From Candidatus Woesearchaeota archaeon (GTDB lineage Archaea > Nanobdellota > Nanobdellia > Woesearchaeales > JACJVW01): DNA of 64,000 bases. The notes beneath the pieces are model-generated. The model searched no databases, had not been told where the DNA came from, and saw only the letters and a list, made by a program, of their open reading frames with translations. This document shows positions 6,387 through 53,482 of the stretch, piece by piece (position 1 is the stretch's first letter; every line of letters starts with the position of its first letter). The position numbers and the translations under genes are program-made. The stretch spans positions 4,787-68,786 of the forward strand of contig JACJVW010000003.1 of NCBI GenBank assembly GCA_020637435.1, read 5' to 3'.

Positions 6387-6701
6387 TACCTCTTCTTTAA
6401 GTCTATCTGTCTGAACCCCGGGGTTCGAATTGTTGTGAACGAAGTGAACAACATAGACATGAGCTTGCTCATGGCGTTCCCTCTGGACCCATACCTCTTC
6501 TTTAAGTCTATCTTTCTGAACCTTGGGGTTCGAATTGTTGTGAACGAAGTGAACAACATAGACATGAGCTTGCTCATGGCGTTCCCTCTGGACCCATATA
6601 TCTTCTTTAAGTCTATCTGTCTGAACTTTGGGGTTCGAATTGTTGTGAACGAAGTGAACAACATAGACATGAGCTTGCTCATGGCGTTCCCTCTTGGTCC
6701 A
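6387..6701 (+). repeat. 3 x 105-bp tandem repeat, each ending in the tRNA-Lys 3' end with a hairpin cassette in the T-loop
   Basis: Units 6387-6491, 6492-6596 and 6597-6701, near-identical with a few substitutions. Confidence 0.95.
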
Positions 6702-6912
6702 TATACCCTTATTTTTCTTAATTGTGTCGATAGAAATTATGCCTTAATAAGGAGTCTTCCATATGCATGAAGACTACTACTGCGACCCCCCTGGGAGCAT
6801 ATCCCTACTTCCAGAGCAATAACTTTTTAAAGTATAAAATTCCTACTTATCGGAGAGTAGCAACACTCATTCTAAAAGAGGTGCTGAGTACAGCATAGAG
6901 AGGTACAAACAA

Positions 6913-7806
6913 ATGAAAAAAAGTTTAGTGATTATTGGATTACTATTTATGAGCCTGTTCGTATACGCGGAGGGCCAGACACATGTTTATGTAGAAGGAT
7001 ATGTTATGGATGACTTGGGTAACAAGTACGGCAATATGGATGTTCATGCATACATGGACGAGGGAGATGGAGTTTTTTCCTCTTCTGATCGATTGTATGA
7101 TACTGTAGTCTCAGAGCTTTCGAACGGTATACACAACGGCTATTACTGGTTGAATATACCTGCATCTGACTTTGAAGTCGGTGCTACTATGTTCATCGTC
7201 TATCAAAATGTAAGCCATGAAGCTATCGTTACTCTTGCTGACCTTAAAGCCATGAACTATAAGAAGGATCTTAAGATTGTTGAGAAGAACTTAGAAGTTG
7301 AGGGTGTGGAAGCAGAGACTGAAGATTCTATGGAAGAGACATCTGTGGATGAAGTGACTGAAGAGGAGACTGAGGATACTATGGAAAATACTGCTGATGT
7401 AGAAGTAGCTGAAGAAGAGACTGAGGATTCTATGGAAGAGACTTCTGAGGAAGAAGTAGCTGAAGAAGAGACTGAGGACTCTATGGAAGAGACTTCTGAT
7501 GTAGAAGTAGCTGAAGAAGAGACTGAGGACTCTATGGAAGAGACTTCTGATGTAGAAGTAGCTGAAGAAGAAACTGAGGACTCTATGGAGGACACTGTTG
7601 AAGAAGAGGCTGTACCAGAAGAAGAAACTTCTGAAGATGAGTCTGATGCGGAGAAAGACGAAGGTATGCAAGTCACTATGCCAAGCATCGGCGGCAATAT
7701 GTCACTATTCGTCGGAGCAGGTGTCGTCATCATCCTTTTGCTCATCCTGGCTTGGATCTTCAGTTCAAGGTCCAGAGGCAGGAAACCGGACTACGTTGTC
7801 CGATAA
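6913..7806 (+). CDS. secreted, C-terminally membrane-anchored protein with acidic repeat stalk
   Basis: Signal peptide, 17-aa Glu-rich repeats, C-terminal TM helix followed by basic residues. Confidence 0.8.
   Translation: MKKSLVIIGLLFMSLFVYAEGQTHVYVEGYVMDDLGNKYGNMDVHAYMDEGDGVFSSSDRLYDTVVSELSNGIHNGYYWLNIPASDFEVGATMFIVYQNVSHEAIVTLADLKAMNYKKDLKIVEKNLEVEGVEAETEDSMEETSVDEVTEEETEDTMENTADVEVAEEETEDSMEETSEEEVAEEETEDSMEETSDVEVAEEETEDSMEETSDVEVAEEETEDSMEDTVEEEAVPEEETSEDESDAEKDEGMQVTMPSIGGNMSLFVGAGVVIILLLILAWIFSSRSRGRKPDYVVR
7393..7596 (+). repeat. intragenic 4 x 51-bp tandem repeat (SDVEVAEEETEDSMEET)
   Basis: Four in-frame units plus two degenerate upstream units. Confidence 0.9.
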
Positions 7807-7839
7807 GCTTTTATTTTCTTTATTCATTCAACTTTTTCT

Positions 7840-9234
7840 ATGGATATTTTCCTGACTAATACACTTGGCAAGACCAAGCAACGATTCACACCTATCACTC
7901 CGGGAAAGGTCAGTATATACACCTGTGGTCCTACAGTGTATCATTATGCTCATATAGGAAACCTTCGTTCTTTTGTGTTTGCTGACCTGCTTAAACGCAT
8001 GTTCATCGCAAATAACTACAAGGTAGAGCATGTGATGAATATTACTGATGTAGGTCATCTGACGAGCGATGCGGATGACGGTGAGGACAAGCTTGAGAAG
8101 GGGGCTAGGCGTGAAGGAAAGACTGTCTGGGAAGTGGCTCAATATTATACCGACCATTTTATGGAAGACTTGAGCAGGCTTAACATTATGCTCCCCGACC
8201 ACATGCCGAAGGCTACCGACCACATTGCTGAGATGATAAGTATCATCAAGAACCTAGAGGAGAAAGGATATACGTATATCGCTGAAGGTAATGTCTATTT
8301 CGATACGCAGAAATATGCTGAGTATGCTGATTTTGCAGGACTGAAGCTTAATGAGGAAGATGCTCGGTCACGTGTGGATGAGGATGAACATAAGAAGAGT
8401 CCCTTCGATTTTGTCCTTTGGTTCACCCGTTACAAATACAGTTCTCATGAGATGGAATGGGACAGTCCCTGGGGCCGAGGGTTTCCGGGCTGGCATATTG
8501 AATGCAGCGCAATGTCGACAAAATATCTTGGAGATCATTTTGATATCCATACCGGAGGCATTGATCACATTCCTGTGCATCATACGAATGAGATCGCTCA
8601 GAGCACTTGTGCGTTTGGCCATAAATGGGTCAACTACTGGATGCACAACAATTTCCTTGTGCTTGGCGAAGATGAGAAGATATCAAAGTCGAAAGATAAT
8701 TTTCTTCGCTTGCAGACATTGATGGACAAAGGCATCTCTGGTCTTGATTATCGGTATTTCCTTCTTGGCGCTCACTACCGTAAACCTCAGACATTCTCAT
8801 TTGAAGGGCTTGAAGCAGCAAAGACTAGTCTTCGCAAGCTTGTGCAGAAGTACAAGGATGTTTCCGTCCGTGATGGACGTAATGAAGATGAATTCGATAT
8901 CTTCTATACGAAATTCCTGGAAGCGATGAATGATGACTTGAATACTCCTCAGGCACTGGCAGTGTTCTGGGAGACCGTGCAAGACACCAACATTGATGTT
9001 GGGACGAAGAGGTCGCTGTTTGATGCGTATGATGCTGTGCTTGGCATAGGGCTTAAGGAACAGGCAGAACGAAAAGAGGAAATCCCGGATGATGTCCTTG
9101 CGCTTAAATCTGAGCGGGACAAGGCGCGGGTTTTGAAGAACTGGGCGGAATCTGACCGACTACGAGATGAGATTGTGTCTAAAGGTTTTGAAGTGCTTGA
9201 CTCTAAGGATGGTACTGAAATTAGAAAGGCCTAA
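7840..9234 (+). CDS. cysS: cysteinyl-tRNA synthetase
   Basis: YTCGPTVY..AHIGNLR, GWHIECS, HTGGIDHIPVHH.NE, KMSKS-like KISKS. Confidence 0.98.
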   Translation: MDIFLTNTLGKTKQRFTPITPGKVSIYTCGPTVYHYAHIGNLRSFVFADLLKRMFIANNYKVEHVMNITDVGHLTSDADDGEDKLEKGARREGKTVWEVAQYYTDHFMEDLSRLNIMLPDHMPKATDHIAEMISIIKNLEEKGYTYIAEGNVYFDTQKYAEYADFAGLKLNEEDARSRVDEDEHKKSPFDFVLWFTRYKYSSHEMEWDSPWGRGFPGWHIECSAMSTKYLGDHFDIHTGGIDHIPVHHTNEIAQSTCAFGHKWVNYWMHNNFLVLGEDEKISKSKDNFLRLQTLMDKGISGLDYRYFLLGAHYRKPQTFSFEGLEAAKTSLRKLVQKYKDVSVRDGRNEDEFDIFYTKFLEAMNDDLNTPQALAVFWETVQDTNIDVGTKRSLFDAYDAVLGIGLKEQAERKEEIPDDVLALKSERDKARVLKNWAESDRLRDEIVSKGFEVLDSKDGTEIRKA

Positions 9235-9319
9235 GTAAATTTAGCTGGTAATGCTATCTTGACAGCACATGGTGCGGTATTTAACAAGTTTTAAATAACA
9301 AATTTCAGCGTCATACCCT

Positions 9320-10048
9320 ATGGCTAAGCAGAATGCACATCTTTTTCTGAATAGCGTCGCGTTTGTATTAGGTTTTTCGGTGGTGTTCTCTGCGATGGGA
9401 GTATCGCTGCAGACTACTCTTTCATCGATCAGTTTTGAACTGCAGGGATTCTTGGCTAAGCTTGGAGGAATCATCATCATCTTCTTTGGTCTTTATCTGC
9501 TGAACATTGTCAAGGTCCCTTTCCTGCAGAAGGAGATCAGGATCTCTGTGCACAAGAAATTTTCATCAGCCTATATCTCATCTTTCGTTTTTGGAGCCGC
9601 GTTCGCCATCGGCTGGTCTCCCTGTGTAGGGGCTATACTCGGAGCAATACTTGCGCTTGCCATAAGCTACCCTGCGCTAGCGTTCTTCCTTATGGTTGCT
9701 TATTCGCTTGGCTTGAGCATCCCTTTTTTGATCGTTGGTTATTTTGCGGATGAAGCGAGAGGTTGGGTGAAAAAATACACCGCTTCGCTTCGCTATGCGA
9801 GCAAGGTCTTTGGGGCTATCCTCATCGTTCTAGGAGTTCTTGTCTTCACTGGCAATCTTGGTGCGATCTCCAGTCTGGAATGCACAGATCAGGGTCTTGG
9901 GAAGATCACTCACAGCCTGCTTGGTAACCAGCCTTTACATCTGGGTATCGCGTTCCTTGCAGGACTGGTCTCGTTCCTAAGCCCTTGCGTCCTGCCGCTG
10001 ATTCCGGCTTTTCTGACCTATCTGGCCTCATTGCTAGTCAAACACTAA
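9320..10048 (+). CDS. ccdA: CcdA/DsbD-family thiol-disulfide transporter, apparently circularly permuted
   Basis: GWSPCVGAILG motif mid-protein; AFLAGLVSFLSPCVLPLIP motif at the C-terminus. Confidence 0.9.
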   Translation: MAKQNAHLFLNSVAFVLGFSVVFSAMGVSLQTTLSSISFELQGFLAKLGGIIIIFFGLYLLNIVKVPFLQKEIRISVHKKFSSAYISSFVFGAAFAIGWSPCVGAILGAILALAISYPALAFFLMVAYSLGLSIPFLIVGYFADEARGWVKKYTASLRYASKVFGAILIVLGVLVFTGNLGAISSLECTDQGLGKITHSLLGNQPLHLGIAFLAGLVSFLSPCVLPLIPAFLTYLASLLVKH

Positions 10049-10079
10049 TTTTATTAAGGTCAAAGGTCCTACAATTGCT

Positions 10080-10619
10080 ATGAAAAGAGGTCAATCCTCG
10101 ACCGAATCACTGATGGTCTATGGAATAGGGTTGCTAATGATCGTAGCGGTGATAGCTTCCCTATCATTCTTCGGGGTCATCAATCCAGAATCTTTGATTC
10201 CTGGAAGCTGCTTATTTGACAGTGAACTGGAGTGTATGGACGCGACCATCGAAGGAGGCAATAAGAGTGTGCATCTCGCTTTGGTCAACAATAAAGGAAG
10301 AGCTATCGATATTCTCAATGTGTCATTGGCGTTCGCCATTCCCGATAGCTACAGGTGCAATTCTACGCGTATGATGCTTGATGCTGACGGTACTCTCTCA
10401 ACCTACACTCTTACTGATAGCATAGCAGTCGCTGGTCAATTTACGATGAACAATAGGATTCCAGAGTCTTACGGCTTTAGGATCCAGATCGAATGCGCGG
10501 ATGCTAACTGGGTGGTGGATGAGAAAGTGCAAATCAATGTAGAAGTCACTTACCGAAACAGTTATTCTGGACTTATGCACACTGCGCAGGGAACGATCAA
10601 TGCTCGTGTCGGTCAGTGA
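10080..10619 (+). CDS. class III signal peptide (archaeal type IV pilin-like) protein
   Basis: MKRGQSSTESL followed by a hydrophobic helix. Confidence 0.8.
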   Translation: MKRGQSSTESLMVYGIGLLMIVAVIASLSFFGVINPESLIPGSCLFDSELECMDATIEGGNKSVHLALVNNKGRAIDILNVSLAFAIPDSYRCNSTRMMLDADGTLSTYTLTDSIAVAGQFTMNNRIPESYGFRIQIECADANWVVDEKVQINVEVTYRNSYSGLMHTAQGTINARVGQ

Positions 10620-11365
10620 TCAAGCATACCGCAGGCGGCTTCGATGTCAGCACCGCGACTCATCCTTACAAAGCATTTGTAGCCTGTATTCCTGATTATC
10701 TCCTTGAAATGTACTAGATGAGGGCTTTTTTTGAGTGTTCCCTTTTCGTTGTATTCAATAATGTTGAAATTGGTGCTAGGGGCCCAGTCCAATGCTGCAA
10801 GCCTTCTGGCGTCCTCATCTGTGTCATTGACACTGTCTATCAAGGTGTATTGTACCATGATTCCGTTCTTCCCCCTATGCTGATGCGAGAATCTGACGAG
10901 TTCTTGCAGTCCGGCGGCATGAGGAATAAGCTTGTCACGTAGTTCCTGCGTCGACGCATGGACAGAGACGGCGATATTGTAGGGTACATCTATCAGTCTG
11001 TTAAGGTGATAGCCTACGGTGGAGAGAGTTATATGCCTATATGCGAGATTGAATTTTGTATGAATAGCTTCGATAGCAGCACTTACAGCTTTAAAATTAA
11101 GCATCGGTTCACCCATGCCCATGCATACGAGCGCTGTGGGGTTCTGACCTATCATCTGTGCTGCATCGCTAAACTGACCGATTATCTCTTCGCTATTGAG
11201 ATTGCGTCTGAACTTTCCCGTGTGGCAAAAGGTGCAACCTACCGGGCATCCGGACTGGGATGAGACACATACTGTGTATTTCTCATTTTTTGATGGGATG
11301 ATGACAGCGGTATACCCGTCATACTCCAACTTAATAGTCCCGTCGGTTGATGTTATGCTTTGCAT
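10613..11365 (-). CDS. rlmN: radical SAM RNA methyltransferase, RlmN/Cfr family, N-terminally short
   Basis: CVSSQSGCPVGCTFC (CxxxCxxC), MGMGEP, ITLSTVG, GADIEAACG. Confidence 0.85.
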   Translation of the reverse strand: MQSITSTDGTIKLEYDGYTAVIIPSKNEKYTVCVSSQSGCPVGCTFCHTGKFRRNLNSEEIIGQFSDAAQMIGQNPTALVCMGMGEPMLNFKAVSAAIEAIHTKFNLAYRHITLSTVGYHLNRLIDVPYNIAVSVHASTQELRDKLIPHAAGLQELVRFSHQHRGKNGIMVQYTLIDSVNDTDEDARRLAALDWAPSTNFNIIEYNEKGTLKKSPHLVHFKEIIRNTGYKCFVRMSRGADIEAACGMLDH

Positions 11366-11441
11366 GCATATTTCATCAATCAGGACAGACTTATATGCGT
11401 ATCCATAATCATTAAAAGACTCTGATGAATCCTCTCATGCT

Positions 11442-12272
11442 ATGCTACAGCTTTTTAGAGTGCATCAATGGTACAAGAATCTTGTTGTAGCATTGCCATT
11501 GTTCTTTTCCGCGACTGCACTGGATTTGGGGAATATCTGGCAGACTGCAATTACATTCGCACTATTCTGCATCATCTCCTCAGTCAATTACATCCTTAAT
11601 GATGTGCATGACGCTAAGAAAGATAGATTGAATCCTGAGAAAAAGGACAGACCTATCGCTTCTGGCAGGGTCAGTGCTGGAATCGCGATTGCGATCGCTG
11701 TATCACTGTTGTGCATGGGAGTGCTGATAGGGTTTCTCCAACAGTTTGTCATCGCAGTATTGCTGCTACTCTTTTTCCTGATCACGTTCGTCTATTCGTA
11801 TTGGGCAAAAGAACAACCGTATCTGGAGTTTTTTTTTGTCAGCACGAACTATATCATCAGGGCAGTAGCCGGTGCGTACGCGATACAGGTGTATGTAAGT
11901 CCATGGCTTATTCTTGGCACGTTTTTCCTGGCTCTCTACATCATCATTGGCAAGCGATATGCGGAACTTGCTCTTCCAGATATAGAGGCATCACGACCAG
12001 TAATGGTCCACTATAAGTCTGGACATCTACGGGATTTTGTGACCATCGCTACCACATCACTCCTCATCTGCTACGCTCTTTATTCGTTCTCCTCAGCCTA
12101 TACATATCTTGTCTATACTATACCCGTATTCATCTATCTGGTATTCAAGTACAGCACGCATATCTATGCGCAGGATAGTGTCGCACGACATCCGCATAAT
12201 ATCATAAGGGATAGAAATTTTGTGACAGCACTTCTCGTCTATGCTATGCTTGCAGTAATTATCGTCTACTGA
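11442..12272 (+). CDS. UbiA-family prenyltransferase (decaprenyl-phosphate phosphoribosyltransferase-like)
   Basis: QWYKNL, YILNDVHDAKKDRLNPEKKDRPIASG; multiple TM helices. Confidence 0.9.
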   Translation: MLQLFRVHQWYKNLVVALPLFFSATALDLGNIWQTAITFALFCIISSVNYILNDVHDAKKDRLNPEKKDRPIASGRVSAGIAIAIAVSLLCMGVLIGFLQQFVIAVLLLLFFLITFVYSYWAKEQPYLEFFFVSTNYIIRAVAGAYAIQVYVSPWLILGTFFLALYIIIGKRYAELALPDIEASRPVMVHYKSGHLRDFVTIATTSLLICYALYSFSSAYTYLVYTIPVFIYLVFKYSTHIYAQDSVARHPHNIIRDRNFVTALLVYAMLAVIIVY

Positions 12273-12940
12273 GAAGAGATCTCAACTGCCCTTCCTTTCT
12301 TGATGAGCAGCTCTGCGATGTCTCCAGGGAGGTTTGCAACATCCTCTTCCTGGAAAGGACCGTAAACCTCAAGCTCTTTGCCTACAAATTTTGGCACTGC
12401 GTGGGTGAAACGGACCATCTTCTTTAGCGCATTCTCTGATGGAGATGGTTCAGGTTTGTTCTCCACCTTTTTTGGTTCCTGCTTTTCAACAATCACTTTA
12501 ACTTCTGCATCAGTCACCGATGCTTCCCTACCTTCGAGAACTGAGATGAGGATGCCTTTGCGATAGTTCTGCATTGTCCTGACAAGGGAATGGAACAGCT
12601 GCTTTTCGATGTCAAGCAGATTGGTCGTATCGATGATGTTAGAATCTGTCCTTGCCTTGTTCATAGCAAGCATCAGGATCTTCTTCTCACGTCTGTCATA
12701 GAGCTCCTGGAGAATCTTGGCGACATTGCTCAACTGGTTGCGAAGCTTGGCATGTTCGGTCGCTTTGAGCAGATCTATAGTCTGGTTGGCATCTCCTATC
12801 TCAGTCTTCTTGTCAGAGATATAGGTGAGCACATCATCGAAGAATGTTTCGGGAAGCTTTTGGATGTCATCTTTGTACTTCTCTCTACGAAGAAGCTCAA
12901 AGAGTGTCTCATAAGAAATACTTAGATCCTCGTCCCCCAT
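12266..12940 (-). CDS. GINS complex subunit (Gins51-like)
   Basis: LRREKY...IQKLPETF, RREKKIL..A, C-terminal B domain YGPF.EEDVANLP...AELLI.KG.A. Confidence 0.85.
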   Translation of the reverse strand: MGDEDLSISYETLFELLRREKYKDDIQKLPETFFDDVLTYISDKKTEIGDANQTIDLLKATEHAKLRNQLSNVAKILQELYDRREKKILMLAMNKARTDSNIIDTTNLLDIEKQLFHSLVRTMQNYRKGILISVLEGREASVTDAEVKVIVEKQEPKKVENKPEPSPSENALKKMVRFTHAVPKFVGKELEVYGPFQEEDVANLPGDIAELLIKKGRAVEISSQ

Positions 12941-13018
12941 ACCATTTCTGAAAGTCAAATAGGGTATATAAATGTTACACCCCGAAAAATAGGACTGAGA
13001 ATCAAGGTGATAAATGTA

Positions 13019-13432
13019 TCAGTCGCTTCGCTTGCGAAATCCGAACTCCTGGTCTAGCTCTATTGCGGCCTCTTCCCAGTCATCGAGCATGCGGTTGACA
13101 TCTTTTCGTAATTCCTGGACGGAACGTTGCAGACTACCGCCGCGGATGTAGAGTCTTGCTTTGTCACGGACTATGAGGCCCGCTTCGATAAATATCCTGA
13201 TGTGATGGTTGACCCGCGCTTGTTTGATGTCAAGACGCCTTGCAAGCTCTTCACAGCGTACTCCCTTCTGTTCAGCGCTAAGGTTGACCAGTTCTTTGAA
13301 GACTCTTAGCGAAGTGTCTTCTATGTCTCGACCTGTTTGAAGGCCCATGCTATGAAAGAGCCACTGCAGTTCTTTGTCCGGTCTTTCATCAAGCGGTCGG
13401 TCGATCTTCTTTATCCTGAAATATCGGATCAT
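13019..13432 (-). CDS. winged-helix (ArsR-like) transcription regulator
   Basis: EELARRLDIKQARVNHHIRIFIEAGLI HTH pattern. Confidence 0.75.
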   Translation of the reverse strand: MIRYFRIKKIDRPLDERPDKELQWLFHSMGLQTGRDIEDTSLRVFKELVNLSAEQKGVRCEELARRLDIKQARVNHHIRIFIEAGLIVRDKARLYIRGGSLQRSVQELRKDVNRMLDDWEEAAIELDQEFGFRKRSD

Positions 13433-13568
13433 GTATCAAGGAATCCCTTTTCAAATTTATAAATCTTTTGGATAAATTCTATTTTATCTCTTTATTGTCG
13501 ATAAGAAGTCGATAAAATTAGCAAAGTTTATAAGCAAATTCATGTTAACGGGCCTGTGAGGTGAGGCA

Positions 13569-18662: not shown

Positions 18663-18686
18663 TATGTGATTATTGGGGAGAACACC

Positions 18687-22126: not shown

Positions 22127-22304
22127 CTGCATACGTGCCAGCGTCGCATAATCTGGAGAAGATGAGCAATAGCTCACCTTCGGAGAATATTGCGGTGGTC
22201 TCGAAAGATGAAAACTATGGTTTCGTCACGAAACAACCACTGTCCTTGTGACTTCCCGGTTCAAAAACCTACATAGGCTGAAAGTCCGGGCGCTGGCGTA
22301 GCAG
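22127..22304 (+). ncRNA. candidate structured non-coding RNA of unknown family
   Basis: 14-bp closing helix (22127-43 with 22291-304), several internal stems, TATA-like TTTAATAA at 22102-09, terminator downstream. Confidence 0.55.
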
Positions 22305-31987: not shown

Positions 31988-32117
31988 GCGAGGGTGGCAG
32001 AGCCTGGTCAAATGCGCAGGACTTAAGCGACCTATGATGGAGACAACCAAGCGCGTGCTTGGGTCTAAGTTATCCTGTCCCTTAGTGGGTTCGAGGGTTC
32101 GAATCCCTTCCCTCGCA
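31988..32117 (+). tRNA. tRNA-Leu(TAA) with 44-nt intron (32028-32071)
   Basis: GCGAGGG/CCCTCGC acceptor, CAGGA/TCCTG anticodon stem, long variable arm, perfect BHB (CTTA/TAAG central helix, GACC/GGTC). Confidence 0.95.
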
Positions 32118-32140
32118 TTATTTCTCATTATCCTTCAGTC

Positions 32141-32220
32141 GAACCCTAGGGTTCAAAGTGTTGTGAGCTGATGCGGACAACATAGACATGGATTTTTCCA
32201 TGTCGTACCCTACCCTCGCA
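32141..32220 (+). repeat. tRNA-Leu 3'-end copy with T-loop hairpin cassette
   Basis: GAACCCTAGGGTTC...TGTTG/CAACA-TAGA-CATG/CATG-TCGT-ACCCTACCCTCGCA. Confidence 0.85.
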
Positions 32221-45311: not shown

Positions 45312-46696
45312 CGAAGCTGTGGAATCTCCATATAGTCTCTCCACAAGCCTACGACTGCATTTATGATGGCCCAGGCGGAGTTGGGTATGTCTGAGGTTAC
45401 TTCCTTCTTTTGCATGGTATATGCGTGGTTGTGCGCCATCTGGGGGTGGATCTCAGCATTGATATCCATGTCGACAGACCTTATCTGCAATTCGATGGCT
45501 TGATACTTCTGCACCTGGTCACCTATCCTGTCTCCTATCATGAATGGTACGTGCAATGACTGATATCCTGTGCCTTTTGGATTTTTAATATAGTCTTTGG
45601 CGAGCGCAGGGTCGATACGCATCAGACCATCGCTCTGCTCGACGATCACTTTGAATGCTTCATAGAAATCATATACCTGATCCTTGTCACGTACTATGAC
45701 TCTGATACCAAACATATCCTGAAAAGATTTTGGCCTGTCACCCTGTTCTCCAAGGGTCTTTCGGTCATATAAGGTACGAAGCAGTTTCATGGCCATACTA
45801 TTCCAGCTTTTTACCCGGGTCTGTACTTCAGCATAGGGCAGATGAATCCTCTTCGACTGGTCGATAGCTTCCACTAGATACTCCACATAGTCTTCTAGTT
45901 CAGGTTTCTTGCTCACATAGTCGTCGAGCACCAGGTGTCTTCTTTTAATATCTCTGAGTATCTGGTAGCAGGCTTCGTAATTGATGTCACCGTTACTCTT
46001 AAGGGTGTCCGGCATATGTGAAAGGAAATTCTGGGCAAAGTAATTGGATGATATCCTTTGGCCTACATGTCCACCGTAGGTGGCTTTATACACTCTTTGT
46101 AGCAGAGGAGCAACCGCTTTTTTCATGTCTCCCGCTTTGGGTGCGCTTTCGTAAAAGGTAATCTCGCCGCTTTTTTTTGTCCTGTGCGTAGGGAGGTGGA
46201 GTCTTGGATGCGTACCGGTGGTGTCCCAGTTGAGGTCTTTACCGTAAATCACGTTCCTGAATCGGAAATCTTCTTCTAGAATATCTGCATCCTGAGTCTG
46301 GAAAATAGTCGCTATCTTCGTTCTATCTTCAAGAGAATACATGGTGATCTGATTCAAAGTGGTCGGTACGCTTGGTGTTGGAGGGATGATGGAGGCCTCT
46401 TCAAGCGTTTCCCTTATCTTGTCGGGAAGCACTTTCCTCAGCTTCACTTCACCCTCTCTTCGGGATTCGCTGACAATGGACCAGAGCCTTTGGATCTCAT
46501 CATCATGTACAATTCGGTTGAGTGTACTAAGAAGCGTACCTTCGCTCATGCTTACCAGTTTTTCCAAAGGATACGCGGTGAATACCCGAGCAAATTGATA
46601 GCTAACGTCTTGCGGGTCAAGGAATGCGGGCTCCACAGCATGACTGAATCTACTGTAGAGCTGCTCATTCACTTCATGACGCATCGTGTTTGGCAT
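45308..46696 (-). CDS. RelA/SpoT-domain nucleotide pyrophosphokinase with long unknown N-terminus
   Basis: RVKS..S...K, QDMFGIRV, DYIKNPKGTGYQSLH, ELQIRS, AE...AH..Y. Confidence 0.85.
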   Translation of the reverse strand: MPNTMRHEVNEQLYSRFSHAVEPAFLDPQDVSYQFARVFTAYPLEKLVSMSEGTLLSTLNRIVHDDEIQRLWSIVSESRREGEVKLRKVLPDKIRETLEEASIIPPTPSVPTTLNQITMYSLEDRTKIATIFQTQDADILEEDFRFRNVIYGKDLNWDTTGTHPRLHLPTHRTKKSGEITFYESAPKAGDMKKAVAPLLQRVYKATYGGHVGQRISSNYFAQNFLSHMPDTLKSNGDINYEACYQILRDIKRRHLVLDDYVSKKPELEDYVEYLVEAIDQSKRIHLPYAEVQTRVKSWNSMAMKLLRTLYDRKTLGEQGDRPKSFQDMFGIRVIVRDKDQVYDFYEAFKVIVEQSDGLMRIDPALAKDYIKNPKGTGYQSLHVPFMIGDRIGDQVQKYQAIELQIRSVDMDINAEIHPQMAHNHAYTMQKKEVTSDIPNSAWAIINAVVGLWRDYMEIPQLR

Positions 46697-47108
46697 AGGG
46701 GAGCGCTACTTAAATTTTATTTATAAATCTTACTTTTCTTTGTCTCTTTTTAGTAGTAATCGTTGTCATCTTGCTTGGGATACCAGACATTTTATCGAAC
46801 CAATGAGAATTGTGAAGATGCAAATAGAATGTAATACTGGCTTATGATGAAAACAATTCTGTGGCTCGTATTGCCTATGTGATCGTAAATCTCTAAACGT
46901 TTTATTTCGTCCATGAAAACTATTATATACTTGCTTCACTTATGGTCAAGGTATGAACACAAAAGTTGATTGTATTCATTGTTAATTCAACCAGTTATAT
47001 TTCTGCAATCATTCTTCTGAATCATGGGTAGCTCGGCTACTCTGTAAACTCTATCTGGATTCTTGGAATTTCTTGAAATCGATTGTTGAATAAATGGAGG
47101 AATGAAAA

Positions 47109-47768
47109 ATGTATAGAGAATCAATCTATGAATTTATCAAAGGAGAAGCGACATTATTGCTTCCTAAACAGGGCGGATTATTTGATTACATGTGGGATCT
47201 TTTACCTGAAATTGGTCTAGAGGAAGTAGTGATGGATTTGGATCTGCTTAAGCGCAAGGCACTGGACAAGTTAACAATAGGAGATCTTACTGTACAACTT
47301 GTCAGAGGTGAAGATATATCACAACGAGTAATGGATTCCCTTGGACTGGGAAGAAATACATATGGGCTTACTGGCGATGACCTTTATGATGAGTGGAGGC
47401 TAACTCAACCAGAGAATCCCCTTGAAGTGAAGAACACCTATGATTGGGTTGACAAGAGAGCTATTTATGGAAGGCCTGCACTTTGTGTTGTTAACAGGTC
47501 TGGTGAGCTAGGAAAGATAAGATCCGGATCAATCATCGCTCTAAACAGGAAATATGTCAATACATCAAAGCTTGCCCTTGAAGATTCCTTAAAAGATATG
47601 TCTTTTTTGTACAGAGTTTATAGTGGAGATACGGAGAAGGTCGTTGAAGCAGGCAACGCAAGCGCAGCAGTCGATATAGTGTATAGTGGTTCTACATTGG
47701 AATCGACTGGTCTTAAGATTGCTGCATGTATCAGGACTAGTGACCTATCGCTAATAGGAAGCAAGTAA
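47109..47768 (+). CDS. hisG: ATP phosphoribosyltransferase, short-form-like
   Basis: LPKQG.L, GLTGDDL, KY.N, G.TE, VDIV.SGSTL...GL; GGAGG SD. Confidence 0.8.
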   Translation: MYRESIYEFIKGEATLLLPKQGGLFDYMWDLLPEIGLEEVVMDLDLLKRKALDKLTIGDLTVQLVRGEDISQRVMDSLGLGRNTYGLTGDDLYDEWRLTQPENPLEVKNTYDWVDKRAIYGRPALCVVNRSGELGKIRSGSIIALNRKYVNTSKLALEDSLKDMSFLYRVYSGDTEKVVEAGNASAAVDIVYSGSTLESTGLKIAACIRTSDLSLIGSK

Positions 47769-47973
47769 TTTTTTTTATTATTATTGACAACCAATGCATA
47801 TCTGCAAAGAAATCTGTTTCTTCTTTTTTTTCTTTGGCAAATGCTCCTTTTCTATTTATGAGTTGACTAATGCTCAATGCTTCTAGGGACTCTTCACAAA
47901 CTTTTTAGAAATAGAAAACTCTTTTTCGTACATTTGCTAAGAAAAAAGAGAAGAAGAAAAAAAGTCCAGAAAA

Positions 47974-48474
47974 CTATTTCGAACCGTAATAGAAATAGTT
48001 CTCCAGGACCACGTTGTCTGGAGAAAAGTTCCCCTGCCTGGGATGGCTTTCCTTTTGTGTCTGAGGTTTCCCGCCTGAATTCTCGGTAGACACTTGGTTT
48101 GATGCATGTTGTTGAACTTGTTCCACAGGTCGTTCTACAGGTTGAGCTTTAATGGCTTTGATCTGCTGCATCTCATTGTAGAGTTTTTTCATCTCTTCTG
48201 CGATGAGCTTGTTGTTCTTCATTATAGCATCCGAAACAATCTGCCTTATCTCCTGTTCTGTCACAGACTTAGTCTGTGGTTCCACCTTCGGAAGTTCCTG
48301 TACAACAGTCTCCTGTCGTTTGTAGCTCTCAGGCACAGAGTTCTCGTAGATACTTGTCGCCTGACTTACCGCGTCGTCGAATGACTGAACGTGTCCGTTC
48401 TTTGTCAATTCTGCAATCATCTGGTTCGCTTTTCTGAGTTCTTCTATGTTCATCATTCTGTACCGCACCTTCAT
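47974..48474 (-). CDS. hypothetical protein coupled to ftsZ
   Basis: ATGA overlap with the ftsZ stop; C-terminal ENYFYYG. Confidence 0.7.
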   Translation of the reverse strand: MKVRYRMMNIEELRKANQMIAELTKNGHVQSFDDAVSQATSIYENSVPESYKRQETVVQELPKVEPQTKSVTEQEIRQIVSDAIMKNNKLIAEEMKKLYNEMQQIKAIKAQPVERPVEQVQQHASNQVSTENSGGKPQTQKESHPRQGNFSPDNVVLENYFYYGSK

Positions 48475-49529
48475 ACAAAATTAATGTCCAACTCACTGGA
48501 GAGTGAGTTTTTCCGCTGCTGTACCTGTTTTGCGTCTTCTTTTCCGACGATCCAGGGTGAATTGACTCCGGTCATGATGGTCATGACACAGATCTTTCCT
48601 TTCATGTTCTCTGATACACGAGCGCCCCAGATGACATTGGCGTCTTCGCTGAGATTCTTGGTGACTTCGTCACCTACTGCTTCGACTTCTTCAAGAGTCA
48701 TGTCAGGTCCGCCCTCAATGTGGATGAGCGCTCCGTCTGCTCCTTTGTAGTCTATGTCAAGCAGTGGGTTGGAAAGCGCACCGCCTACAGCTTCAGCAGC
48801 CCTGTTGTTGGTATCTGAATACCCTACCCCGATTGCGGCAACGCCGCCGTTTTTCATGATCGCTTTTACATCAGCGAAATCAAGATTGACAAGTGATGGA
48901 ACGGAGATGGTCTCAACGATTCCACGAATCATGGTTGCGACAAGCTCGTTAGCAACAGCGAATGCTTGCTGTACTGGAAGGTTTCCAGCTATTTTGACCA
49001 GTCTGTTGTTGTCTACAACGATGACGGTATCCGCGATAGCGCGTAGTTTCTGCAGACCTACTTCGGCTTTGTCGATCCTTGCACGTTCTATGCTAAATGG
49101 CATGGTCACTGTTCCTATGACGATGGATCCCATCTCGGAAGCAATCTTGCCTACCATAGGAGCAGAGCCTGTTCCTGTGCCGCCGCCCATACCAGCGCAG
49201 ACAAAGACCATATCGGTATTTTTGAGGCTTTCTTTGACCTCATTCATGTTCTCCTGGACTGCAGCAGCCCCTTTTTCAGGGAAGCCACCACATCCAAGAC
49301 CTTTTGTCACACTAGCGCCGATGAGAAATTTCTCATCAGCTTCAGTGATGTTCAGATGTTGCTGATCGGTATTGCATGCGATAATCTTAGCGCCTTTGAT
49401 GCCTTTTCGGTACAGCCAACTTACCATATTGTTGCCTGCGCCACCGCATCCTATAACTTTGATATTTGCTTGTCCTACCTCGACTTCGGGCATTGCGCCC
49501 ACCAAATTCTCCGGGTTAAATATGTCCAT
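48471..49529 (-). CDS. ftsZ: cell division protein FtsZ
   Basis: GCGGAGNN, GMGGGTGTG, NLDFAD. Confidence 0.98.
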   Translation of the reverse strand: MDIFNPENLVGAMPEVEVGQANIKVIGCGGAGNNMVSWLYRKGIKGAKIIACNTDQQHLNITEADEKFLIGASVTKGLGCGGFPEKGAAAVQENMNEVKESLKNTDMVFVCAGMGGGTGTGSAPMVGKIASEMGSIVIGTVTMPFSIERARIDKAEVGLQKLRAIADTVIVVDNNRLVKIAGNLPVQQAFAVANELVATMIRGIVETISVPSLVNLDFADVKAIMKNGGVAAIGVGYSDTNNRAAEAVGGALSNPLLDIDYKGADGALIHIEGGPDMTLEEVEAVGDEVTKNLSEDANVIWGARVSENMKGKICVMTIMTGVNSPWIVGKEDAKQVQQRKNSLSSELDINFV

Positions 49530-49693
49530 GACGGTCCACCTCAGTGTTGCTTTCTAGTAAGAATATTATATATGACAACCAGTATATAAATGTTACTAAT
49601 TTGTATACTGAGTTAAGTTTTTGTATACTATTTCGTTGCTCCTGAATGGTGACTACTCTTCTTTAAATAACAATTTTGCAGGAAAAGCCCCAT

Positions 49694-50164
49694 ATGGCTA
49701 GTGATGATTCTCTGCAGATTGTTATTTTCAGGCTTCATGAGGAGTATTACGGAGTCAATATCCGGGATGTTATTGAGATCCACAAGGAAGCACCCATGAC
49801 GAATGTACCTAATTCAAAACCGTTTATCGACGGAGTCATCAATCTGCGAGGTAAAATAGTAGTCATCGTGGATCTGAATACGATGCTCAATATGGAACGT
49901 ACTGAACAGACGAGAAAGTCAAGGATTATCGTTATGGAGTCAGAGGGGGACCCGGTAGGCATGAAGGTGGATGAAGTCATAGAGACTGTTGTGATAGCCA
50001 AGGATGATATCCAGGCACCACCTTCTGTGATACGTGAGCGCATCAATGATGATTATATACAGGGAATAATCACGATCAAAGATCGGTTGGTGGTACTTTT
50101 GGATAATGTAAGCCTGTTCCAAGCGGATATAACTGAAGAGGTGGATGCAAGTGGAGGACAGTAA
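49694..50164 (+). CDS. cheW: chemotaxis coupling protein CheW
   Basis: IFRL..E.YG, VP......GVINLRG.IV.IVDL, G..VD.V. Confidence 0.93.
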   Translation: MASDDSLQIVIFRLHEEYYGVNIRDVIEIHKEAPMTNVPNSKPFIDGVINLRGKIVVIVDLNTMLNMERTEQTRKSRIIVMESEGDPVGMKVDEVIETVVIAKDDIQAPPSVIRERINDDYIQGIITIKDRLVVLLDNVSLFQADITEEVDASGGQ

Positions 50165-50666
50165 ACGGATAGTGCTTTTTACACTCGGCTCTGAACTCTT
50201 TGGTTGTGATATTTCGCATGTGCTTGAGATTATGAAGGTCAGGCCTTATACAGCGATACCTGGCGCATCAGAGTATGTAGAGGGTGTCATCAATATTCGT
50301 GGGCAGATAGTGGCTGTAGTCAATCTAGCCAAGAAACTTGGTTTCCCCCAGACTGATGACCTTAACAGAGCAAGAGTTATCGTCTGTGATGTAGGAAAAG
50401 ACTCTATCGGATTTCAGGTGGATGCAGTCAAAGAGGTCATGACGCTTGAGACGGGTGAGATCAAGTCACCGCCTGGAGTCATCCAGAAAAAAATAAGGTC
50501 TGAGTACCTGGAAGGTATCTATATCGACGGGGATAATCTGATAATCCTTGTGGACCTTCTTGCGCTTGTTACGGCTGAGGAACTAAATACTCTTGGCGGA
50601 ACCATGGCGCCTACGTCACCTAAGGAGATCTATGACGAGATCAATAAAGTGATGAAAGATCAGTAA
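50145..50666 (+). CDS. cheW: chemotaxis coupling protein CheW (second copy)
   Basis: FTLGSELFG, IP..S.YVEGVINIRGQI..V.NL, GFQVD.V. Confidence 0.93.
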   Translation: MQVEDSKRIVLFTLGSELFGCDISHVLEIMKVRPYTAIPGASEYVEGVINIRGQIVAVVNLAKKLGFPQTDDLNRARVIVCDVGKDSIGFQVDAVKEVMTLETGEIKSPPGVIQKKIRSEYLEGIYIDGDNLIILVDLLALVTAEELNTLGGTMAPTSPKEIYDEINKVMKDQ

Positions 50667-50743
50667 GCTCTGGTTCAAGTTCTTATTGAAGTGGCAACGC
50701 ATGTTTTGTAGACTGAGTGTCTGTTCACTTGATAAATGCACGA

Positions 50744-51180
50744 AGCCTGGTACACAGACCGAACAAGTTCGTTCTTGCCTTGCTCACTCTCTTCGCAAGG
50801 GATCGTTCGGTTGGCATTGCAATTTCTCCACTATTCTATGTTAAAACTTATAAAGAGATGAACAAGAACTTAGCTATTATGGGCTTGTAGCTCAGCCTGG
50901 TATACAGACCGAACAAGTTCGTTCTTACCTTGCTCATTCCATTCGCAAGGGATCGCTCGGTTGGCATTGCAATTTCTCCACTATTCTATGTTAAAACTTA
51001 TAAAGAGATGAACAAGAACTTAGCTATTATGGGCTTGTAGCTCAGCCTGGTATACAGACCGAACAAGTTCGTTCTTACCTTGCTCACTCTCTTCGCAAGG
51101 GATCGTTCGGTTGGCATTGCAATTTCTCCACTATTCTATGTTAAAACTTATAAAGAGATGAACAAGAACTTAGCTATTAT
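50744..51180 (+). repeat. about 3 x 150-bp tandem repeat of promoter plus tRNA-Ala 5' half with a D-loop hairpin insert
   Basis: GGGCTTGTAG recurs at 50881, 51031 and 51181; the first unit is truncated at 50744. Confidence 0.95.
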
Positions 51181-51276
51181 GGGCTTGTAGCTCAGCCTGG
51201 TAGATCGCTCGGTTGGCACAATCATCATCTGATTCCAAAGATCGAGAGGCCGCGGGTTCAAATCCCGCCAAGTCCA
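51181..51276 (+). tRNA. tRNA-Ala(GGC) with 22-nt intron (51219-51240)
   Basis: G3:U70 pair, GGC at 51215-17, perfect BHB (TTGG/CCAA, AATC/GATT); C11/T24 mismatch in the D-stem. Confidence 0.92.
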
Positions 51277-51285
51277 TATTTTTTC

Positions 51286-51450
51286 TTACTTTAATTTGCT
51301 TATGATGCCTTTGACGAATTCTTCGTATCTTACTTCGGCTGCAAGCATGGCAACATCCGGACTAGGAATGCCTTCTACATGGTCGATATGTTTGAGATGC
51401 TCAGTTAACAGTTTTCTGATGAGTTCCTTTTCGTTTGCTGTTAGCGTCAT
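51286..51450 (-). CDS. 54-aa hypothetical protein
   Basis: MTLTANEKELIRKLL...; GGTGA SD; manual translation. Confidence 0.6.
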   Translation of the reverse strand: MTLTANEKELIRKLLTEHLKHIDHVEGIPSPDVAMLAAEVRYEEFVKGIISKLK

Positions 51451-51485
51451 ATGTATCACCCATAGTGCATAAAGATTTGATAGTA

Positions 51486-52223
51486 TTATAATCTTGTGGG
51501 TGTGAGTATGTAGCCTTTGTCAAGGTCGCCGAAGATAGTGCATTTTTTTGGGTTTTTCCAGTAGAAGAAGACGATGTAGGCGCACAACAAAGCATCGATT
51601 TGGTCTTCATAGTCTTTTAATGCCCTGCCCCTCATCCCTATAACTTTTTGCTTGAGAAAATCACACGGAAGCAGTTTGTAGAAGGCATTTTGATATTCTT
51701 TAAAGGCCTGCCACCTGCTTTCATAGGTTCGGCCGGGTTTGTTCTTATAGGGGATTATCTTATCCCTTCTAAAGAGTGTAATGGTGGCGGGATGAGGGAA
51801 TACTTCGTAGAATCTTTTACCTGACTCTTTTGGTTTATTCAGGAAGCTTTGGGTGAACTTCCTCTGTTCCAGGGCAATGCTGATGTCTTCACCTCTAATT
51901 GACCCAGTCCAGCTTGAGAGGCGCTTTCTGTTGGCAGGGTGTGCGCCCGCATGGTGTTTTCTGAATTCTTTGTTGAGGAGCTGTTCTCCCGGGCGGGAAC
52001 CATCTTCGTTGGGTACGATGAGAGGCGCATCGATACCAATAATCGTAGGACTCTTTTGTATGATGCTAAATATGGTCTTAAGGATATTTGCATCGGAATC
52101 ATGGATAGAGATATGGACTATCTGCAAATGCTCATTAATAATTGCGACACCAGATGGGTTCCTGTTGGACCAGGCAAGATCAAGACCTACGAAAAACATA
52201 TACTTAATCCGAATAGCCTTCAT
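51486..52223 (-). CDS. DUF429-family predicted RNase H-like nuclease
   Basis: VGLDLAWS...SGVA, IGIDAPL, EVFPHP, DQIDALLCA. Confidence 0.88.
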   Translation of the reverse strand: MKAIRIKYMFFVGLDLAWSNRNPSGVAIINEHLQIVHISIHDSDANILKTIFSIIQKSPTIIGIDAPLIVPNEDGSRPGEQLLNKEFRKHHAGAHPANRKRLSSWTGSIRGEDISIALEQRKFTQSFLNKPKESGKRFYEVFPHPATITLFRRDKIIPYKNKPGRTYESRWQAFKEYQNAFYKLLPCDFLKQKVIGMRGRALKDYEDQIDALLCAYIVFFYWKNPKKCTIFGDLDKGYILTPTRL

Positions 52224-52309
52224 ATTTATGAATTGTGTGCTGTTGTTTTAAGCCTTAAAACCGAAGTACTATGACAGATTTAATAGTATGATCACAATCT
52301 AAAGGTCAC

Positions 52310-52762
52310 ATGTATGATATTACAGATATACCGGACCTTGGATCTCTTTCGATAGCGTATAAGGGTGCCCCAAATTCTTATCTATTGGCTTATGGCACCG
52401 CCGTATTGATACGTGAAAGTGGATATTCATTAGATGATGCAGCTAAGCTTGTCAGTACATTTCGTGATATGGAGTATGAGCCAAGACAGGTGGCAAGGGG
52501 AGTTGAGATCCTTCTAGGCGAGGATAGGGGTCGAAGCATCGGTGATATCATCGACGTTACGGAGCGTGTAAAGAAATACACTACCTGGTCTTGCAGCCCC
52601 TCGAATATCGCATATGCTGTTGTTGATGCCCTAAAGACGGGAGAGTCTACAGAGCGAATATTACGTGCTATCGACTGCAGAGGGCAGCATACCTCGCGGA
52701 TGCAAAACCTATTCGGTCGTGGCGCAAATGGGGTTGTAAAATACCTCGGTGATTGCCTCTGA
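52310..52762 (+). CDS. hypothetical protein
   Basis: 150-aa ORF. Confidence 0.55.
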   Translation: MYDITDIPDLGSLSIAYKGAPNSYLLAYGTAVLIRESGYSLDDAAKLVSTFRDMEYEPRQVARGVEILLGEDRGRSIGDIIDVTERVKKYTTWSCSPSNIAYAVVDALKTGESTERILRAIDCRGQHTSRMQNLFGRGANGVVKYLGDCL

Positions 52763-52811
52763 TTGAAAAATCTTTTAAATGCATGATTTCTCGCTTTAGA
52801 TTATTGACTTT

Positions 52812-52924
52812 GGGGCTGTAGTGTAGCTTGGACGTAGTAATGCTGCGTATCGCAGCATTGCTAGGGAGCAATATCACTGGCGGTTCGGGGCCGCCCAACC
52901 GGAGTTCGAATCTTCGCAGTCCCA
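52812..52924 (+). tRNA. tRNA-Pro(CGG) with 40-nt D-loop intron (52832-52871)
   Basis: GGGGCTG/CAGTCCC acceptor, GGCGG/CCGCC anticodon stem, CGG at 52886-88; GCTT/GAGC central helix with 3-nt bulges. Confidence 0.88.
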
Positions 52925-53090
52925 TACAAAACCATTTAATTTAAAAATTAGAAAAAGCAAAGGGTCGTAGTAAGTAGCACCACAGCATCTAGATAACGAT
53001 GCTTAGTTTGTTTGCACAAACTGTAAGCTCAGTAGACAAGCTAGTGGGTTTCTTCGCTAGCGCTCATCAAGCCCAGGAAAATCAGATATT

Positions 53091-53243
53091 GGGGCCGTAG
53101 TGTAGCCTGGAGTTGATCACAGCTGTGGTCATCGGGTACCTATCACTGGAGCTCGGGGTTCGTAGCGCAAATGCGCTGTGCTTCCAAGAAAGCACATAAC
53201 GTACGGACAGCTTCTAACCGGAGTTCGAATCTCCGCGGTCCCA
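53091..53243 (+). tRNA. tRNA-Pro(GGG) with D-loop intron (53111-53139) and 50-nt anticodon-loop insertion (53159-53208)
   Basis: GGGGCCG/CGGTCCC acceptor, GGAGC/GCTTC anticodon stem, GGG at 53155-57; position 33 is C. Confidence 0.75.
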
Positions 53244-53482
53244 TATTTCTTCCTCTGGAATCAGCAATAGAACTCCAGAGTTCGAATTGTTGAGGTTTCC
53301 TCAACATAGACACGGTTTTTCCGTGGCGTACTCCCGCGGTCCCATATTTTTTCCTCTGGAATCAGCAATAGAACTCCAGAGTTCGAATTGTTGAGGTTTC
53401 CTCAACATACCTTGTGTTAACAAGGTTCGAGACTTCAGTTGAAGAAGACATGGTTTCTCCGTGGCGTACTCCCGCGGTCCCA
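53244..53482 (+). repeat. two tRNA-Pro 3'-end copies with T-loop hairpin cassettes (101 and 138 bp)
   Basis: Units 53244-53344 and 53345-53482; the second carries extra hairpins. Confidence 0.92.

Follow-up and report, generated by a model that had tools for sequence, protein, structure and literature searches.

Double-hairpin cassettes in partial copies of tRNA gene ends in a tiny Woesearchaeota-type archaeal genome

The stretch of DNA analysed here (the window; 64,000 nucleotides) corresponds to positions 4787-68786 of contig C3 of an archaeal metagenome-assembled genome (MAG), a tiny DPANN genome of the Woesearchaeota type that comprises five contigs and 1.13 Mb with 45% GC and is ~75% complete. 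In the window, the intact genes for tRNA-Lys(CTT), tRNA-Leu(TAA) and a multi-intron tRNA-Pro are directly followed by three, one and two short units, respectively, in which a copy of the cognate tRNA 3' end is split by a cassette of two hairpins, and tRNA-Ala(GGC) is preceded by a mirror-image array built on its 5' part (Table 1). This feature is real and clearly non-random. The copy numbers given below for the MAG refer to one metagenome assembly and to one genome of its genus.

In its general form a unit starts with a pyrimidine-rich trailer of ~23-26 nt. The T-stem 5' strand and TTC follow in inverted form, directly against that strand itself, and then the T loop. The cassette comes next and reads TGTTG-loop-CAACA (hairpin 1), TAGA, CAYG-loop-CRTG (hairpin 2) and NCGT(A/T), after which the cognate T-stem 3' strand completes the unit together with the acceptor 3' strand and the discriminator; the cassette splits the copy at the T-loop/T-stem junction, position 60/61. 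In the Lys units a 26-nt trailer leads into the palindrome GAACCCC/GGGGTTC, the remaining T loop (GAAT), hairpin 1 (TGTTG..CAACA), TAGA, hairpin 2 (CATGAGC..GCTCATG), GCGT and finally TCCCTCTGGACCCA, which represents the T-stem 3' strand, the acceptor 3' strand and the discriminator. From unit 1 to unit 3 the left palindrome arm changes from CCCC through CCTT to CTTT, and the last 3'-end copy of the array is degenerate (TCCCTCTTGGTCCA). The Leu(TAA) unit consists of GAACCCT plus AGGGTTCAAAG, TGTTGT..ACAACA, TAGA, CATGGA..TCCATG, TCGTA and CCCTACCCTCGCA. Both Pro units carry one extra C in the T-stem 3' copy (ACTCCCG), and the Pro palindrome shows the transition GGAG to AGAG; unit 2 has a 37-nt extra module, CCTTGTGTTAACAAGG TTCGAGAC TTCAGTTGAAGAA, which separates TA from GA, and its hairpin 2 contains a T.G pair, an intermediate of the CATG/CACG switch.

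A previous model-generated interpretation made from the letters alone (the sequence-only reading) had proposed this shared grammar after the Lys, Leu and Pro tRNAs, and its coordinates as well as its grammar were confirmed, the pattern GTTCRAANTGTTG..CAACATA giving six matches in the window against none expected in shuffles. As it had also stated, the left palindrome arm tracks the cognate T stem (GAACCCC at Lys, GAACCCT at Leu and GAACTCC at Pro), and stems are conserved with compensatory changes. Hairpin 2 was paired in 100% of the cells of the aligned copies and shifting the partner strand abolished the pairing; three of its six pairs are altered on both sides between loci, including CATG/CATG versus CACG/CGTG. 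The five base pairs of hairpin 1 are invariant across copies. From locus to locus the stems and linkers keep their base sequence, whereas the loops are unrelated; a 13-nt linker (CAACATAGACAYG), together with ..CRTGNCGTW, is common to five to seven loci on three contigs.

The whole genome was then searched with a sequence pattern and with a covariance model (R1) built from the copies. This check, suggested in the sequence-only reading, bore out a hairpin family tied to tRNAs with cognate flanks: ten full cassette copies were found, none of them more than ~320 nt downstream of a tRNA gene and none away from tRNA ends in 1.13 Mb; the five genes concerned are Lys, Leu-TAA and Pro of the window, plus another Leu and an Arg outside it. 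The Pro variant with the 37-nt extra module recurs at the Arg tRNA. Reduced cassettes, consisting only of TAGA, hairpin 2 and NCGT, lie behind tRNA-Ser(GGA), in an array of four to five 70-nt units on contig C2, and behind tRNA-Thr(GGT). The fourth and fifth full loci, the reduced versions, the Arg variant and the T-loop intron of tRNA-Ser(CGA) described below had all been overlooked before. Other hairpin modules in the same layout follow the tRNA at C1:316832-316937, tRNA-Trp and tRNA-Met. Some copies are decayed: the Arg unit has lost the 5' strand of hairpin 1, the Thr-GGT unit has a mismatch in hairpin 2, and distal copies are more degenerate at Lys, Ser-GGA, the C1:316832-316937 tRNA and Met, and in a relative.

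The tRNA genes of the MAG are heavily interrupted, and standard finders overlook many of them: Rfam detected 17, ARAGORN with introns 22, and a T-arm/acceptor scan added two, for at least 24 genes. When 2 kb on either side of each tRNA was scanned, partial self-copies were found at 12 of the 24 recognisable genes, 10 at the 3' end and two at the 5' end. Such copies could be mis-called as tRNA pseudogenes or prophage attachment sites. In G019, a complete 1.3-Mb genome of another family of the same order, the Rfam tRNA model detects only 14 tRNAs, so tRNA gene interruption that defeats the finders seems to be order-wide.

Table 1. Coordinates of the tRNA genes, cassette units and related features. 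Plain positions refer to the window; positions with a C1 prefix refer to contig C1 of the MAG.
Feature	Position	Strand	Basis and remarks
tRNA-Lys(CTT), intact, canonical-position intron	6292-6386	+	ARAGORN, Rfam, sequence; anchors three-unit array
Three tandem 105-nt Lys units	6387-6491, 6492-6596, 6597-6701	+	Sequence; covariance model 92-94 bits
tRNA-Ser(CGA) with D-loop, anticodon 37/38 and T-loop introns	22137-22298	+	T-arm/acceptor scan; not of the cassette family; overlooked by ARAGORN and Rfam
tRNA-Leu(TAA), intact	31988-32117	+	Rfam, ARAGORN on genome, sequence; anchors one unit
Single 103-nt Leu(TAA) unit	32118-32220	+	Sequence; covariance model 86 bits
Ala 5' array	50744-51180	+	Two full units and a copy truncated at its 5' end
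tRNA-Ala(GGC), intact, canonical bulge-helix-bulge intron at 37/38	51181-51276	+	Positive control recovered by motif scan
tRNA-Pro, multi-intron, T arm intact (CGGAG TTCGAAT CTCCG)	53091-53243	+	Anchors two units
Pro unit 1, basic form	53244-53344	+	Pro-unit covariance scores 71.7 and 39.1 bits
Pro unit 2, with 37-nt extra module	53345-53482	+	Pro-unit covariance scores 71.7 and 39.1 bits
Three full units behind second tRNA-Leu	C1:619757-619924		Pattern search, covariance model
One full unit behind Arg tRNA	C1:403244-403360		Pattern search, covariance model
Second hidden tRNA, acceptor GGGCCCG/CGGGCCC	C1:138017-138252	-	124-nt T-loop intron at 59/60, further introns
25.7-kb integrase-bearing island at tRNA-Thr(TGT)	C1:66531-92245		Bounded by repeat AATCCCTCCAGAGGCT

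Two genes, tRNA-Ala of the window and tRNA-Thr(TGT), have mirror-image arrays at their 5' ends. Tandem Repeats Finder described the Ala array as 3.1 copies of a 150-nt period (50744-51202). A full Ala unit contains the promoter (CTTATAAA), nucleotides 1-22 of tRNA-Ala, a 48-nt insert with CGAAC-AA-GTTCG and CCTTGC..GCAAGG, nucleotides 22-37 of the tRNA and then ~26 nt of other sequence; the insert sits at the D-loop/D-stem junction and the copy stops at the 37/38 exon border. The earlier claim that these repeats reuse cassette modules holds for the two inverted repeats of the insert, but the covariance family model scored the array at E = 0.1 only; a similar claim for the anticodon intron of tRNA-Pro came down to a weak resemblance, namely two hairpins plus TAACGTA. 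Because the Ala units duplicate the promoter too, they were copied from DNA and not from RNA, and together with the fact that no unit copy carries CCA this makes an RNA intermediate unlikely.

Comparison of the loci with one another showed that Pro unit 2 and the Arg unit on C1 are identical at 90 of 101 positions (89%) from the palindrome arm through the T-stem 3' copy, a stretch that includes the 37-nt extra module and the extra C. The Pro and Arg tRNAs have identical T arms, and the acceptor strands and trailers of their units are local; the combination of a common cassette with local acceptors and trailers points to DNA-level transfer or recombination. For the two Leu tRNAs, too, the T arms are shared and the units related, with agreement at 18 of 22 trailer positions (p = 0.017). 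At ten loci the repeated core consists of the T-stem 3' strand, the acceptor 3' strand, the discriminator and 3-10 trailer bases. A yardstick for this layout is present in the same genome, in the island at tRNA-Thr(TGT), where the integrase adjoins the tRNA, the 16-nt repeat runs from the T loop to the discriminator and an inverted repeat lies just inside the distal copy; the layout of the cassette repeats matches that of the island repeats.

Together, these data lead us to read the units, tentatively, as DNA-level partial duplications of tRNA gene ends and not as RNA genes, introns or split-tRNA halves. The best reading of the cassettes themselves, which we hold with somewhat less than even confidence, is that they are miniature, gene-free, att-like recombination cassettes that are anchored on tRNA gene ends and amplified by unequal exchange. 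Each 3' unit would then be a non-functional duplicate of the terminal ~25 nt of the cognate gene (both T-stem strands with the T loop between them, the acceptor 3' strand, the discriminator and a few bases of the trailer), split at 60/61 by the double-hairpin cassette and preceded by a trailer copy and a short inverted T-stem copy. A short cassette-bearing DNA would recombine with the resident gene within its terminal 13-25 bp, a stretch from the T-stem 3' strand to just past the discriminator that would behave like an attachment core. Exchange 3' of the cassette would leave the working tRNA intact and the interrupted copy distal, which is the arrangement that the loci display. From there the cassettes may spread between tRNA genes with common T-arm sequence, a route suggested by the relatedness of the Pro and Arg and of the two Leu units, and unequal exchange between the direct repeats would generate tandem arrays whose distal copies decay, as the pattern of degeneration indicates. 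The hairpins would most likely give the recombination site the architecture by which it folds or is recognised; alternatively, self-correction of palindromes may keep the stems perfect. The same logic would apply at the 5' ends of the Ala and Thr-TGT genes.

Palindrome self-correction could mimic compensatory change, and it is central to an element-free alternative in which replication or repair errors, by template switching at hairpin-forming tRNA DNA, gave rise to the partial duplications and to the inverted copies in the GAAC..GTTC palindromes, and quasi-palindrome correction, with no need of selection, kept the stems perfect. The palindrome centre lies exactly at the T-stem edge and the transitions noted above at Lys and Pro cluster at that centre, as such errors would have it, and tandem duplication is evidently frequent in this genome, given seven unrelated intergenic tandem arrays of 76-135 nt. 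Template switching leaves unexplained, however, both the linker and ..CRTGNCGTW common to several loci on three contigs and the 89% identical Pro/Arg cassette, and we consider it improbable, at roughly one chance in eight. The intergenic arrays (C1:14154, C1:40200, C1:140873, C1:188884, C1:539611, C2:3906 and C5:51585) are an observation in their own right. They include a second, unrelated family of at least five arrays with periods of 76-135 nt, up to 3.9 copies and up to 99% identity, which share ..AAATGTACG.. followed by a long inverted repeat (e.g., TTTTTTCAAATATGCC..GGGCATATTTGAAAAAA); C1:140873 and C2:3906 are counted by their similar period and not by this motif, and one array of the second family directly follows the tRNA at C1:188780-188882. 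Just downstream of the Lys array, the open reading frame (ORF) at 6913-7806 contains an in-frame 51-nt tandem repeat of 5.6 copies (7309-7596, plus strand) whose translation is acidic and rich in Glu, Thr and Ser.

Outside the MAG, searches for the exact motif in 60 relatives and then in 400 genomes of the order gave only chance matches in coding sequence; there were no matches in species-representative genome contigs and four in metagenome contigs, all in one catalase gene. Model R1 had no match in 100 other genera of the order, and Rfam recognised only tRNA in the units, both at the gathering threshold and at E up to 5. The cassette sequence is private to one genome, but the phenomenon of partial tRNA-end units is not. 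Two species of a sister genus (MAGs labelled Woesearchaeota and Nanobdellota; L025/L026 and L038/L039/L041) carry a different module behind Thr and Ala tRNAs, GTAAGCTTGACC..GGGAAAC..GGGTCAAGG..CCCTTGG, whose two stems overlap in pseudoknot order; the units are preceded by CT-rich tracts of at least 50 nt, the module as an exact motif is confined to those two genomes, and the Met unit of our MAG carries a related module. An Ala-GGC unit is present in one sister species and absent from the other, and Thr-CGT has one unit versus two; such turnover speaks for recombination, although this filled/empty-site variation is seen only within the relatives' own module family. In a complete genome from another family of the order, a two-hairpin unit ends in ..ACGT before the tRNA-end copy. 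The set of unit-bearing tRNAs differs between genera. This distribution also bears on the possibility that metagenome assembly created or inflated the tandem copies. The MAG is in five contigs and its repeats are 96-100% identical, as might be expected of such an artefact; yet the same grammar stands at 12 loci distributed over three contigs, where the copies differ by variants specific to their locus, and units recur in three independently assembled related genomes, so that an artefact is very improbable.

Several observations weigh against att-like recombination cassettes. The orthologous hairpin module of the sister species is ~90% identical and equals the adjacent coding sequence in conservation, unlike the trailer and the downstream spacer, and this hints at a host-level function and not a neutral scar. 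The conserved stems and linkers with unrelated loops imply a trans-acting factor. No recombinase can be tied to the cassettes: the genome has three tyrosine-recombinase genes, no array has one of them as its neighbour, and the sole tRNA-adjacent integrase belongs to a different element. No unit contains an ORF, and the 57-125 bp between repeats hold neither integrase nor cargo. Units of 64-150 bp are, moreover, very small for excision by a tyrosine recombinase or for double-stranded circles. Nor does this reading account for the palindrome arm or for how the first cassette originated.

The sequence-only reading had called the units a non-autonomous element or the result of a templated duplication process, and had proposed a search for a co-occurring recombinase, HUH nuclease or reverse transcriptase. 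The sharing of cassettes among tRNAs with identical T arms agrees in part with that interpretation; the search turned up no such enzyme adjoining the arrays and no Y1/HUH transposase (Y1_Tnp) in the genome. That the units are not the ends of a known insertion sequence was upheld, as they have no terminal inverted repeats on inspection and the transposase is lacking. The sole reverse transcriptase, a 592-aa retron-type enzyme with a coiled-coil tail (PADLOC RT_III-A, E = 3e-72), is a defence enzyme encoded inside the unrelated tRNA-Thr(TGT) island, and a link to the cassettes was rejected. Retron-type enzymes are, to our knowledge, unusual in DPANN archaea. The same island encodes the 422-aa tyrosine integrase and ORFs that resemble type I restriction-modification genes, by eye only. 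Two further candidates were dismissed: a link to restriction sites, arrays being equally represented at TTCGAA and TTCAAA T loops (6/10 versus 7/12), and coding potential, since only the 105- and 150-nt periods are divisible by three and those of 64, 70, 94, 98 and 101 nt are not.

The hint of host-level function is taken up by an explanation in which the units are a structured RNA in the tRNA 3' trailer, serving the host, for instance, as a signal for processing, as a 3'-end module or fail-safe terminator, or by mimicking the T arm and 3' end as a decoy. Stems kept through compensatory changes, the conservation of an orthologous module between sister species, and the occurrence of G.T rather than A.C pairs on the sense strand (Lys palindrome and Pro unit 2) would all suit an RNA, and every unit ends with the tRNA end and a T-rich run, like a natural terminator context. 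The predicted folds of the Leu and Pro units were more stable than shuffles (z = -3.2 to -4.6), but that of the Lys unit was not (z about 0), and stability was alike on both strands and so does not discriminate. Oligo-T is an established archaeal terminator, and at three loci (Ser-GGA, Arg and the C1:316832 tRNA) T6-T7 tracts separate the working tRNA from its units; the 3' units also have no promoter-like (TATA-like) box, save a weak TTTAAG at Lys, so most units are probably not transcribed. With several units standing behind such tracts and some copies decaying, conserved stems need not imply RNA function. The 5' arrays do not suit a trailer function, the cassette module is private to one genome, the unit-bearing tRNAs differ between genera and no Rfam family matches. 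A trailer RNA appears rather unlikely to us, at about one chance in seven.

The window also provides a direct comparison with true T-loop introns. The T-loop intron of tRNA-Ser(CGA) is 19 nt long (22266-22284), lies at position 59/60 and has a strict bulge-helix-bulge motif, with the T stem as outer helix, a 4-bp TTCA/TGAA helix and bulges AA/A and AG/T; the hidden tRNA at C1:138017-138252 has the same TTCA/TGAA motif at its T-loop intron, the bulges following AA/N and AG/T in the pair, and splicing restores TTCAAAT in both. These two working tRNAs have the 59/60-split T arm as their sole T arm. The T arm and acceptor 3' strand of tRNA-Ser(CGA) are the same as those of tRNA-Ser(GGA), the bearer of the 70-nt array. 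In a strict scan for the motif both true introns scored 9/9 (TTCA/TGAA plus the 5-bp T stem) and no cassette border exceeded 7/9; only the Lys unit yielded a relaxed solution that restores the T arm, with three of four pairs, two of them wobble. As a control, the scan found the strict motif in one of three canonical-position introns (Ala), so relaxed motifs could escape it. The cassettes have no significant sequence similarity to the true T-loop introns (p > 0.1), and the word ACATAG shared between one of these and the cassette is not significant. A complete tRNA with a contiguous T arm stands upstream of every cassette, and no working tRNA was found with a cassette in its only T arm. The cassettes were thus rejected as spliceable introns, there being an intact cognate gene upstream and no strict splice motif, and the earlier suggestion of intermediates of intron birth found no support in that form: what links cassettes and introns is position only, 60/61 for the former and 59/60 for the latter.

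That shared position is nevertheless the starting point for a further explanation, in which the units are relics or donors of tRNA intron turnover. An interrupted copy would be a former gene end with an insert that was displaced by an uninterrupted end or, in the reverse direction, a crossover on the 5' side of the cassette would make it a new intron of the working gene, which is the model of Sugahara et al. (2012) in miniature. Cassettes at 60/61 adjoin the 59/60 introns of two working tRNAs, the Ala insert and copy end fall at a D-loop/D-stem junction and at the 37/38 exon border, a published model ties partial tRNA copies to intron gain (PMC3293823), and the tRNAs of the relatives are mostly intron-free, so that introns are being gained or lost in the lineage of the MAG. 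These points are set against the splice-motif and similarity results given above and the finding of no working tRNA with a cassette in its only T arm; one displacement alone would, in addition, leave arrays of identical cassette-bearing copies unexplained. We regard intron turnover as unlikely, at about one chance in five. Far less probable is that the units serve as 3' halves of split tRNAs, or as alternative 3' ends, which trans- or cis-splicing would join to 5' parts. The units do hold the cognate T stem, T loop and acceptor 3' strand, in a lineage that fragments its tRNA genes heavily, but, unlike the split halves of the Nanoarchaeum/Caldivirga type, they have no promoter of their own and always an intact cognate gene directly upstream. 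The acceptor strand of the outermost copies has mutated, and no bulge-helix-bulge motif is present in the cassettes; within 2 kb of tRNA genes the Ala and Thr-TGT arrays were the only 5' partial copies, no search for 5' halves having been made across the whole genome.

Returning to recombination cassettes, a bolder version of this reading would make them the smallest integrative elements: gene-free cassettes of ~60-120 nt that target the terminal 13-25 bp of tRNA genes, probably homing there in the form of a folded DNA hairpin, rebuild the displaced gene end, hop between T-arm-matched tRNAs and, when exchange occurs on the other side, are deposited in a working T or D loop as a source of new non-canonical tRNA introns. 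This version is speculative and in our estimation unlikely, and for the cassettes as a vehicle of tRNA intron gain as such we see a modest chance.

No description of this cassette family was found in the literature searched, and we consider it a variant of the known partial-tRNA-copy scars. In E. coli tyrT, a bacterial case at a single locus, a 178-bp unit is repeated 3.14 times behind tRNA-Tyr, each copy closes with the final 19 nt of the tRNA, and transcripts of these repeats are processed to RtT RNA (Rfam RtT). The tandem units described here resemble it in standing directly behind a tRNA and ending in its 3' end; they differ in that tyrT has no cassette family common to several tRNAs and in that no Rfam RtT match occurs in our units. 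Recombinase-less cassette arrays are represented by integron attC sites, by cis-mobilizable elements (CIMEs) next to integrative and conjugative elements, and by the tandem ssrA islands of Dehalococcoides. Gene-poor or gene-free units, a repeated attachment core and polar tandem arrays are common to these and to the cassettes, and, as with attC, recognition would use a hairpin-forming site. On the other hand, the attC R''/R' boxes (RYYYAAC / GTTRRRY) are absent: on inspection, inverted repeats GTTG..CAAC occur on both strands and the GAAC..GTTC arms are off consensus. No recombinase gene stands beside the arrays, IntI itself not having been searched for, and the units of 64-150 bp are anchored on many tRNA genes rather than on a single attI or dif. 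Miniature inverted-repeat transposable elements and the palindromic elements of the IS200-IS605 type are also short, non-coding, hairpin-rich and present in several copies per genome; the cassettes differ from them in having no terminal inverted repeats, no fixed target-site duplication and no copies away from tRNAs, and in being flanked by cognate tRNA sequence.

Non-canonical tRNA introns, including T-loop introns, are known from archaea, and their transposition has been proposed for Thermoproteales (Fujishima et al., 2010, as cited in PMC4090602 and PMC3293823). The cassettes are similar in that related short hairpin inserts occupy equivalent loop/stem junctions of different tRNAs and in that their position adjoins the true T-loop introns of the MAG; they differ in lying in dead partial copies, without a bulge-helix-bulge motif or similarity to those introns. 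According to a 2026 census of Asgard tRNA introns, the mode of intron arrival is still open (bioRxiv 10.64898/2026.10.13.758758), and a published model links partial tRNA copies at tRNA ends to intron gain and fragmentation (PMC3293823). The present genome holds three states together, namely tRNAs with true T-loop introns, intron-free tRNAs trailed by cassette-split copies, and a classical integrase island, and with these side by side the idea of recombination-driven intron gain and fragmentation becomes testable in one lineage. A close likeness is also to the direct repeats of tRNA 3' (or 5') ends that tyrosine-integrase elements leave in archaeal tRNA genes (SSV1 and pNOB8 types, and the tRNA-Thr fragment of Caldiarchaeum; PMC3293823), of which the tRNA-Thr(TGT) island is one true example in the MAG: in both cases a partial copy of the tRNA end stands beside the intact gene, the repeat extends from the T loop or T stem past the discriminator, and an inverted repeat lies inside the distal copy. 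The cassette units depart from these elements in that only 57-125 bp without integrase or cargo separate their repeats, in being tandem and near-identical, in that the distal copy keeps the T-stem 5' strand and the T loop in cassette-split form, and in that one cassette family serves at least five tRNAs and half of the tRNA genes of the MAG are affected.

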